Below are positions 3,001-6,000 of a DNA stretch of 64,000 nucleotides, piece by piece. This DNA is from Escherichia coli (GTDB taxonomy: Bacteria; Pseudomonadota; Gammaproteobacteria; Enterobacterales; Enterobacteriaceae): assembly GCF_017348835.2 (NCBI RefSeq), contig NZ_CP072315.1. One strand, given 5' to 3'. Every line of letters begins with the position of its first letter. Within the stretch, counting starts at the first letter, position 1. A program made the position numbers.

Positions 3001-6000
3001 CGCCTCACCTTTGTTCAGGCCGGCATGCACGCGGCGGCGCAGTTCAACACTTTGCAGCCAGTCCAGGATGAACAGCGTGCGCTCGATCCGGCCCAGCTCG
3101 CGCAGGGCCACGGCCAGTCCGTTCTGGCGCGGGTAGCTGCCGAGCTTGCGCAGCATCAGCGAGGCGGTGACGGTGCCCTGCTTGATCGAGCTGGCCAGGC
3201 GCAGGATGTCGTCCCAGTGGGCACGCACGTGCTTGATGTTCAGGGTGCCGCCGATCAGCGGGCGCAACGTCGGGTAGGCTTGCACGCCCTGCGGCACGTA
3301 CAGCTTGGTTTCGCCGAGGTCGCGGATGCGCGGCGCGAAGCGGAAGCCTAGCAGGTGCATCAGGGCAAAGACGTGATCGGTGAAGCCGGCCGTGTCGGTG
3401 TAGGGGTCTGACGCTCAGTGGAACGAAAACTCACGTTAAGCAACGTTTTCTGCCTCTGACGCCTCTTTTAATGGTCTCAGATGTCCTTTGGTCACCAGTT
3501 CTGCCAGCGTGAAGGAATAATGGCCGAGCATATTGATATGTCCGTGGCAAAGCGGGGAGAGGCGTGCGATATCTTCATCATTCAGTGTTTCACCCTGCGC
3601 CCGGAGATGATCCAGGGCTGCCTGCATATAAATAGTGTTCCATAACACGACGGCGTTAGTGACCAGCCCCAGTGTGCCCAGTTGATCTTCCTGACCGTCG
3701 GTATATCGTTTTCTTATCTCACCTTTTTGACCGTGACAGATGGCTCTGGCAACGGCATGGCGACTTTCTCCCCGATTAAGCTGGGTCAGAATGCGCCGGC
3801 GGTAATCTTCATCATCAATATAATTAAGCAGATACAGCGTTTTGTTGATGCGCCCCACTTCAATGATTGCCTGAGTCAGTCCGGAAGGACGTTCACTTTT
3901 CAGCAATGAACGGACCAGCACTGAAACCTGTACTTTGCCCAGCTTCAGGGAGCCAGCGGTCCGGATCATTTCGTCCCACTGAAGGACTATTTTTCGGGGA
4001 TCTGATTGCCCTCTGGCAATATCATTCAGCACGCCATAGTCGGCATCATGGTCCATTCGCCAGAAAACCGAAGCACCGGCATCAGCCAGGCGTGGAGAAA
4101 ACTGGTATCCCAGCAGCCAGAAAAGGCCAAAGACAAGTTCGCTGGCACCTGCTGTATCGGTCATAATTTCGGTTGGATTCAGCCCGGTCTCCTGTTCCAG
4201 AAGACCTTCCAGCACAAAGATAGAGTCCCTCAGCGTCCCCGGTATAACGATGCCATGAAAGCCGGAATACTGATCGGACACAAAGTTGTACCAGGTGATC
4301 CCTCTGTTATTACCAAAGTATTTGCGGTTCGGTCCGGCATTGATTGTTCTGACTGGCGTAACAAAGCGCATTCCATCTGCAGATGCCACTTCTCCTCCAC
4401 CCCATATCTGTGCCAGTGGCAGCGTTGCCTGAAAATCAACCAGTCTGGCATTAGCGCTGGTGATAGTTTCAGCCCGCAGATAGTTCGCTTTTGTCCAGTT
4501 CAGCCGGTGTCGGGTCAGTGCAGGAACATTTGATCTGATCAGTGGTTCCAGACCGATATTGCAGGCTTCAGCCATCAGCACGGCGCTGATGCTGACGGGC
4601 AGATCATCAACTCTGGCACTGGCTTCACTAGCATGGAAAAACTCATCAGCAAATCCGGTATGGGCGTTAATTTCGAGCAGCAACTCCGTTAAATCCACCG
4701 GAGGGAGTAGATCACTGATCATTTTGCTCAGTCGTTTCGGCACTGTTGCAAATAGTCGGTGGTGATAAACTTATCATCCCCTTTTGCTGATGGAGCTGCA
4801 CATGAACCCATTCAAAGGCCGGCATTTTCAGCGTGACATCATTCTGTGGGCCGTACGCTGGTACTGCAAATACGGCATCAGTTACCGTGAGCTGCAGGAG
4901 ATGCTGGCTGAACGCGGAGTGAATGTCGATCACTCCACGATTTACCGCTGGGTTCAGCGTTATGCGCCTGAAATGGAAAAACGGCTGCGCTGGTACTGGC
5001 GTAACCCTTCCGATCTTTGCCCGTGGCACATGGATGAAACCTACGTGAAGGTCAATGGCCGCTGGGCGTATCTGTACCGGGCCGTCGACAGCCGGGGCCG
5101 CACTGTCGATTTTTATCTCTCCTCCCGTCGTAACAGCAAAGCTGCATACCGGTTTCTGGGTAAAATCCTCAACAACGTGAAGAAGTGGCAGATCCCACGA
5201 TCCTCAACACGGATAAAGCGCCCGCCTATGGTCGCGCGCTTGCTCTGCTCAAACGCGAAGGCCGGTGCCCGTCTGACGTTGAACACCGACAGATTAAGTA
5301 CCGGAACAACGTGATTGAATGCGATCATGGCAAACTGAAACGGATAATCAACGCCACGCTGGGATTTAAATCCATGAAGACGGCTTACGCCACCATCAAA
5401 GGTATTGAGGTGATGCGTGCACTACGCAAAGGCCAGGCCTCAGCATTTTATTATGGTGATCCCCTGGGCGAAATGCGCCTGGTAAGCAGAGTTTTTGAAA
5501 TGTAAGGCCTTTGAATAAGACAAAAGGCTGCCTCATCGCTAACTTTGCAACAGTGCCGCCCCAGCAGCATCTCCAGCTGTGAACGCTGTTCGGCTGACGG
5601 TATCAGTGCCAGTTTGTTCCACAGGCGCAACGTCGCCTTTTCCCTTACCTCTGAAATCAACCGGGTCAGCGTAGTGGCTCCGGGGAGAATAATAGTCTAT
5701 CCCGGCATTGCCAGTCGGGGATATTAAAAAGAGTATAGGTTTTTATTGCGATAAACTAGGTTTCACTTTGGTTCACCATGAAGATGGATTCGCAGTTCTA
5801 ATGTGTAATGAGGTTCGGATTCATCTATGGGAGGCAAGTGATGAAGGCTGGCGCTCTCGTAGTAATGATTCACCGGTTTGTACAGGTGCGGAGTCGTTTA
5901 TTGCTGGTACTGCTAGTTGCCGCATTGAAGTAGAGGGAATTGATGAATTATATCAACATATTAAGCCTTTGGGCATTTTGCACCCCAATACATCATTAAA

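Follow-up and report, generated by a model that had tools for sequence, protein, structure and literature searches.

We examined the insertion sequence IS26 in a 64,000-nucleotide stretch of Escherichia coli DNA (contig NZ_CP072315.1 of RefSeq assembly GCF_017348835.2; hereafter, the window), where one copy, designated copy A, carries a frameshift in the gene for its transposase, Tnp26. This frameshift is very probably a genuine pseudogene allele of IS26, carried on the backbone of the IS26-v1 type and inherited vertically. A preliminary description had placed an 819-bp copy at 4739–5557, in which CGATTCATCAACACGG of the other copies was replaced by CGATCCTCAACACGG; both statements were borne out by the positions of the terminal inverted repeats (TIRs) and by alignment. 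The element and its parts, including two open reading frames (ORFs), are as follows.

4739–5557, + strand: IS26 copy A, 819 bp, derived from the IS26-v1 type (A459, Asn184 codon) and defective.
4739–4752, + strand: left TIR (IRL) of copy A, GGCACTGTTGCAAA, intact.
5544–5557, − strand: right TIR of copy A, intact.
5201–5203, + strand: lesion in copy A, reading T-C-C, with the frame shift at Tnp26 codon 134.
4802–5314, + strand: ORF1 of copy A, 170 aa with an ATG start, comprising M1–R133 of Tnp26 and 37 out-of-frame residues.
5185–5505, + strand: ORF2 of copy A, 106 aa, whose only start is GTG; it lies in the −1 frame and encodes the C-terminal portion of Tnp26 as far as the natural stop.

Global alignment of copy A to copy B, an intact 820-bp IS26 in the window, gave 99.76% identity with one mismatch and one gap, which form the single difference cluster across the whole copy. 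At IS positions 460–475, the seven 820-bp copies in the window read CGATTCATCAACACGG, whereas copy A reads CGATCCTCAACACGG from window position 5198. The lesion had been implied to be a simple indel; the sequence change itself held, but comparison with public alleles resolved it into two changes, a deletion and a substitution. One T of the TT dinucleotide at IS positions 463–464 is gone, leaving a single T at 5201, and A466 is replaced by C at 5203. Residues are numbered here with M1 as the ATG at IS position 64, which is also the numbering of the 2021 JBC paper and of G184N; the catalytic residues D82, D142, and E177 of the 2014 mBio paper correspond to D78, D138, and E173 here, an offset of +4 that is consistent with an upstream in-frame ATG start. 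Tnp26 is broken after R133, four codons ahead of the second catalytic Asp. The reported splitting of Tnp26 into two ORFs was confirmed by the ORFs of 170 and 106 aa and by a divided DDE domain, the Pfam profile DDE_Tnp_IS240 being matched at positions 4–56 in ORF1 and 58–139 in ORF2, with the break at profile position ~57, whereas the match in intact copy B spans 4–139. ORF1 retains the TIR-binding N-terminal domain (Tnp26 M1–P56; PMC8477213) and D78. It lacks the second Asp (D138) and the Glu (E173) of the DDE triad, and therefore no active transposase is to be expected from copy A; ORF2 is probably not expressed as a useful product. As a member of IS26, copy A has perfect 14-bp TIRs and near-identity over the typical ~820 bp (819 bp), and what it lacks is the single uninterrupted 234-aa Tnp26 ORF; it is therefore a non-autonomous (defective) IS26. 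UniRef (A0A5S9DQW4_ECOLX) and one NCBI record list the exact 170-aa ORF1 product as ‘Aldehyde dehydrogenase’, a label that is a propagated misannotation and a warning for annotators.

The prevalence of the allele was investigated using a 58-nt query centred on the lesion, which was searched against PLSDB and the E. coli RefSeq records. The query matched exactly (58/58) in 149 of the 72,556 plasmids of PLSDB; in RefSeq, 84 E. coli records contained it, and the ones listed include three chromosomes. Among the hosts are E. coli, Salmonella, E. fergusonii, and Photobacterium damselae, and the isolates, deposited by many submitters, came from pigs, chickens, humans, water, fish, and a giant panda. 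The exact ORF1 product was encoded on 86 contigs of a 15-billion-protein collection, the sources listed including NCBI, ENA, and Logan. A 42-nt string of the variant had no match in a species-representative genome collection, which is uninformative given its one genome per species. Where the allele is annotated, the PGAP/RefSeq label reads ‘IS6-like element IS26 family transposase, frameshifted’. Literature searches, including one for ‘IS26’ with ‘819 bp’, found no paper singling out this allele. The frameshift is already flagged in public annotation and the phenotype of tnp26 frameshifts has already been measured, so that the missing literature is a gap of attention, not of knowledge.

Flanks were then compared at 13 public loci fetched for their frameshift allele, a small sample whose members are phylogenetically related. 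The corresponding features in the window are as follows.

3436–4738, − strand: 3′ part of a Tn3-family tnpA, cut by copy A (NCBIfam transpos_Tn3 positions 546–954).
5699–6085, + strand: bleO (bleomycin-binding protein), right-flank cargo.
6405–6797, − strand: pyridoxamine 5′-phosphate oxidase (PNPOx) family gene, right-flank cargo.
7080–7899, − strand: IS26 copy B, 820 bp, intact v1, inverted relative to copy A and closing an A-bleO-PNPOx-B module as in pOLA52.

The left junction, in which ...GCTCAGTCGTTTC is followed directly by the IRL, was identical in 12 of the 13 sampled loci and is also found in pOLA52 (NC_010378.1), which we take to be the first oqxAB plasmid described. The exception was pAH01-4: here another IS26 interrupts the frameshifted IS at its position 647, and the frameshifted IS adjoins the 5′ end region of a Tn3-family element beside tnpR-blaTEM-1. 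On the right, bleO, the PNPOx-family gene, and an inverted IS26 followed in eight of the 13 loci, as they do in the window. Other right flanks comprised blaTEM in pD72-IncP, tniB/sul1 in a Salmonella Muenster IncR plasmid, and aph(3′)-Ia downstream of an IS26 truncated at about position 695 in pNCYU-25-82-6. A Klebsiella pneumoniae plasmid gave a full-length match to the module, of the length of the frameshift type, and is a candidate carrier of the allele. A 58-nt junction query at a coverage of at least 80% detected the left junction in ~795 plasmids, a rough count; the corresponding right-junction count was contaminated by joined partial matches to IS26 ends and was not used. The left junction is far commoner than the frameshift, which is therefore a sub-lineage marker of an older insertion.

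An error of sequencing, assembly, or polishing, acting on a normal 820-bp IS26, might also leave a base missing. The window contains eight copies of IS26, a kind of repeat at which assemblies are prone to error; long reads err typically by single-base indels; and some public records of the same lineage contain other frameshifted genes, for example oqxA in pTB422. However, the lesion combines a substitution with a deletion in a TT dinucleotide and is not a homopolymer indel, a random error would not repeat the same two changes in the same copy, and a collapsed repeat would yield the majority (intact) sequence, not the minority one. The allele is moreover tied to one left junction in all but one of the sampled loci, and the identical 58-nt string comes from many projects. 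The preliminary description had allowed for an assembly or homopolymer error; this was set aside, without raw reads, on finding the same two-change allele in the 149 plasmids and 84 E. coli records, and we regard such an error as highly improbable.

The ancestry of copy A was evident from the other IS26 copies. The window has 18 occurrences of the 14-bp terminal repeat GGCACTGTTGCAAA, against 0 expected, and these bound eight complete elements and two lone ends; besides copies A and B, the complete elements are the following.

14801–15620: IS26 copy C, 820 bp, v1 type.
18763–19582, + strand: IS26 copy D, 820 bp, canonical type, in direct orientation with copy A.
32683–33502: IS26 copy E, 820 bp, canonical type.
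37917–38736: IS26 copy F, 820 bp, canonical type.
43272–44091: IS26 copy G, 820 bp, v1 type.
47259–48078: IS26 copy H, 820 bp, v1 type.

Copies B, C, G, and H are mutually identical, with A459, AA at IS positions 613–614, and AAC as codon 184 (Asn), whereas copies D, E, and F have G459, GG at 613–614, and GGC (Gly184). Outside the lesion, copy A is identical to the v1-type copies, including A459 and the AAC codon for Asn184, by which IS26-v1 is recognised, and it therefore derives from the IS26-v1 type and not from that of copies D, E, and F. From these v1 copies, and from the pOLA52 copy upstream of bleO, which share its TIRs, copy A differs in A466C and the lost T, in its length (819 versus 820 bp), and in having no 234-aa ORF. 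The name IS26-v1 is given to the N184 form in a passage of PMC9019673 citing Pong et al. 2019, where that form is reported to be more active. No 8-bp target-site duplication (TSD) was found at any of the eight window copies, copy A being flanked by GTCGTTTC and GCCCCAGC; ten IS26 copies of a similar region likewise have no TSDs (PMC9019673).

Several other traces of IS26 were observed in the window. The right flank of copy D (19583–19590, GCGCGACG) and the IRL flank of copy F (38737–38744, AGCCGACG) match the imperfect inverted pair CGTCGCGC / GC^CGACG, which PMC9019673 attributes to an IS26-mediated inversion in the IncHI2 plasmid pOYZ4; this match suggests that the window is of that plasmid's lineage. 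An IS26 fragment (IS positions 509–820) adjoins the IRL of copy B at 7896–8207, and a 63-bp left-end fragment adjoins the IRL of copy E at 33498–33560. A further stretch, at 33875–34173, is 72% identical to IS26 and is presumably another IS6-family element.

Public alleles at the same site suggest how the frameshift arose. pOLA52 contains, at identical left and bleO junctions, an intact v1 IS26 identical to copy B, and an intact v1 copy also occupies this site in pTEM1-GZEC065 and pDETEC19. An in-frame TTCCTC allele (A466C, I135L, WP_113368077.1) was present in only four PLSDB plasmids, compared with 149 for the frameshift, and all four lie in the bleO context (pCombat13F7-2, p13C1079T-1, pGD0503Z13, and pHNLDF400). 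It shares its locus, flanks, and A466C with the frameshift allele, but keeps both T residues and an intact 234-aa ORF. The simplest path is probably that an IS26-v1 lying between the truncated Tn3-family tnpA and bleO gained A466C, giving the in-frame I135L form, and would then have lost one T of the adjacent TT in situ, the order of the two steps being inferred. The bleO-PNPOx haplotype of pOLA52 (G960/T1495) is common to three I135L loci and three frameshift loci, and the polarity from v1 through I135L to the frameshift is supported because pOLA52 shares this haplotype with both derived alleles. The allele probably became common by hitch-hiking on the widespread bleO/PNPOx/oqxAB-associated module; nothing suggests selection for the frameshift allele itself.

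Some observations weigh against this account of an inherited allele of simple descent. The allele in copy A was read from the assembled sequence of this isolate, and where copies in this context were scored as ‘intact’, repeat assembly may in some cases have produced a consensus artefact. Given that the order of mutation was deduced, the I135L form might itself have arisen from the frameshift by +T reversion. The IS alleles and the bleO-PNPOx haplotypes do not form a clean tree, with the frameshift and I135L both found on the GG-T and AA-T haplotypes, and the frameshift and intact alleles both found on TG-C; it must therefore be that IS26 copies have recombined or undergone gene conversion, that the PNPOx site has changed more than once, or that the lost T has occasionally been regained. 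The loss of activity, too, is argued by analogy with engineered mutants whose lesions lie at other positions. A reversible, phase-variation-like gain and loss of T at the TT, prompted by the haplotypes shared between the frameshift and I135L alleles, was considered and rejected; these data do not separate it from recombination, and TT is a poor slippage tract.

The behaviour expected of copy A was derived from published mutants. The closest are the engineered IS26-FS-L and IS26-FS-R of Harmer, Moran & Hall 2014 (PMC4196232), which also combine a tnp26 frameshift with two intact TIRs; their lesions are a 4-bp duplication at IS positions 114–117, which cuts Tnp26 to 30 aa, and a 13-bp deletion at 624–636, which shifts the frame at aa 186. 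The shift in copy A is instead natural and comes at aa 134, past the first catalytic Asp and before the second, and a similar phenotype would be expected by analogy. A frameshifted IS26 alone gave no detectable cointegrates with an IS-free target, and none were formed when both IS26 were mutated; paired with an intact IS26, it gave cointegrates at the IS26 with target specificity kept, ~30-fold rarer whichever partner was mutated (PMC4196232). Single DDE substitutions behaved like the frameshift, with no copy-in and targeted conservative cointegration 25- to 30-fold lower (PMC4196232). Excision of the translocatable unit (TU) from Tn4352B depends on which of its two IS26 has an intact tnp26 (PMC4676283), a result that argues that Tnp26 is not freely shared between copies. 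The proposal that copy A supplies no transposase and can still recombine with intact IS26 agrees with the published tnp26 frameshift experiments (PMC4196232); its supposed dependence on other copies in trans was also upheld, but such help would be inefficient, the targeted conservative reaction being reduced ~30-fold. Copy A would thus be unable to start copy-in events (adjacent deletions, inversions, and new insertions) alone, and would be a poor but possible targeted-conservative partner, at a ~30-fold reduced frequency, when driven by one of the seven intact copies. Its intact TIRs and 819 bp of IS26 homology should permit RecA-dependent homologous recombination at normal efficiency. The conserved left junction and the replaced right flanks fit this picture of a passive copy. 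A comparable natural lesion is found in ‘copy 2’ of the IncHI2-derived MRCP of Salmonella, in a ten-copy region of very similar architecture, which also carries a single T deletion; that deletion is reported at +376, is confined to the chromosomally integrated form, and is apparently an independent event (PMC9019673).

We also considered whether the products of copy A might have a function. ORF1 could be a catalytically dead binder of IS26 ends that competes with or poisons full-length Tnp26 and damps rearrangement, the allele having been selected for this; it retains the native promoter, the start codon, and the whole M1–P56 TIR-binding domain with the linker, the isolated M1–P56 fragment binds the TIR in vitro, and the allele is the most frequent truncated form in its protein cluster (86 contigs, compared with 1–20 for the other members listed). 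That binding, however, needs a much higher concentration than binding by the full protein (PMC8477213), and the partner of a frameshifted IS26 works as often as the partner of a DDE point mutant, with no extra dominant-negative effect (PMC4196232). The abundance of the allele is explained by hitch-hiking with a strongly selected resistance module, and the regions that bear it are still heavily rearranged, as in the window with its eight IS26 copies, none of them with a TSD. An inhibitory role for ORF1 is thus very unlikely in our judgement. We give similarly little credence to the related proposal that the ORF1 product, or the inertness of copy A in cis, stabilises the junction and damps IS26-driven erosion of the cargo, so that the allele became predominant by selection; if it were true, the constant left junction in 12 of the 13 sampled loci would be its footprint.

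Alternatively, copy A might still yield a full-length transposase if the ribosome made a programmed −1 frameshift or transcription slipped, in the manner of the IS1 and IS3 families. The C-terminal half does lie in the −1 frame, sharing 130 nt (5185–5314) with ORF1, and a −1 shift within the overlap would fuse the two halves, giving a near-native protein only if it occurred near the lesion. But transposases of the IS26 family are single-ORF proteins, and the lesion is recently derived from a gene that is uninterrupted at the same locus in pOLA52 and the two other plasmids. No slippery heptamer of the form X XXY YYZ was found in frame 0 across ORF1, and assignment of copy A to the programmed-frameshift class was rejected on this ground and on that of the uninterrupted gene; we assign this explanation almost no probability. 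The preferred interpretation remains an inert, inherited IS26-v1 pseudogene.

The wider surroundings of copy A showed further variation. On its left, two C-terminal fragments of Tn3-family transposases lie in tandem on the − strand, at 2686–3360 (profile positions 750–954) and 3436–4738 (546–954), which indicates stacked remnants of two Tn3-family elements. On its right, oqxAB follows the A-bleO-PNPOx-B module in pOLA52 and several sampled loci; in the window, what lies beyond copy B is a class 1 integron region at 7900–14800 (sul1, aadA, aac(6′)-Ib, and intI1), and no ORF of the size of OqxB was present among window ORFs of at least 180 aa. Among public copies of the module that are otherwise near-identical, the PNPOx-family gene differs at its codon 94 (window 6517–6518, − strand). 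The window and pTB422 have CAT (His), pOLA52 and others have CCT (Pro), and TTT (Phe) occurs in several sampled records, including two IncHI2 plasmids. Recurrent change at this residue, or selection on it, could be the cause.

A natural exchange involving the allele was found in plasmid A of E. coli H3 (NZ_CP010168.1), where the right flank of the frameshifted IS26, GCGCGACGAG..., matches the right flank of copy D exactly from 19583 over 885 nt. Copies A and D are in direct orientation and the copy D flank is exact, and H3 plasmid A is therefore the product of an A × D deletion, corresponding to loss of the ~14.8-kb segment between the two copies (window 4739–19582). All internal markers of copy A are kept, so the crossover lay to the right of position 614 or at the IS end. 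H3 plasmid A is direct evidence from nature that exchanges between IS26 copies still involve the dead copy, RecA-dependent and Tnp26-dependent routes not being distinguished by it.

Collectively, seven of the eight window copies are able to make transposase, four of them of the v1 type (N184, more active) and three canonical. Few rearrangements should start at copy A, while ones that use it as a region of homology may still occur. The two-change signature provides a neutral and easily typed marker of one dTn3-tnpA / IS26 / bleO lineage within an otherwise uninformative repeat, and the lesion allows IS26 crossovers to be placed to the left or right of position 463.

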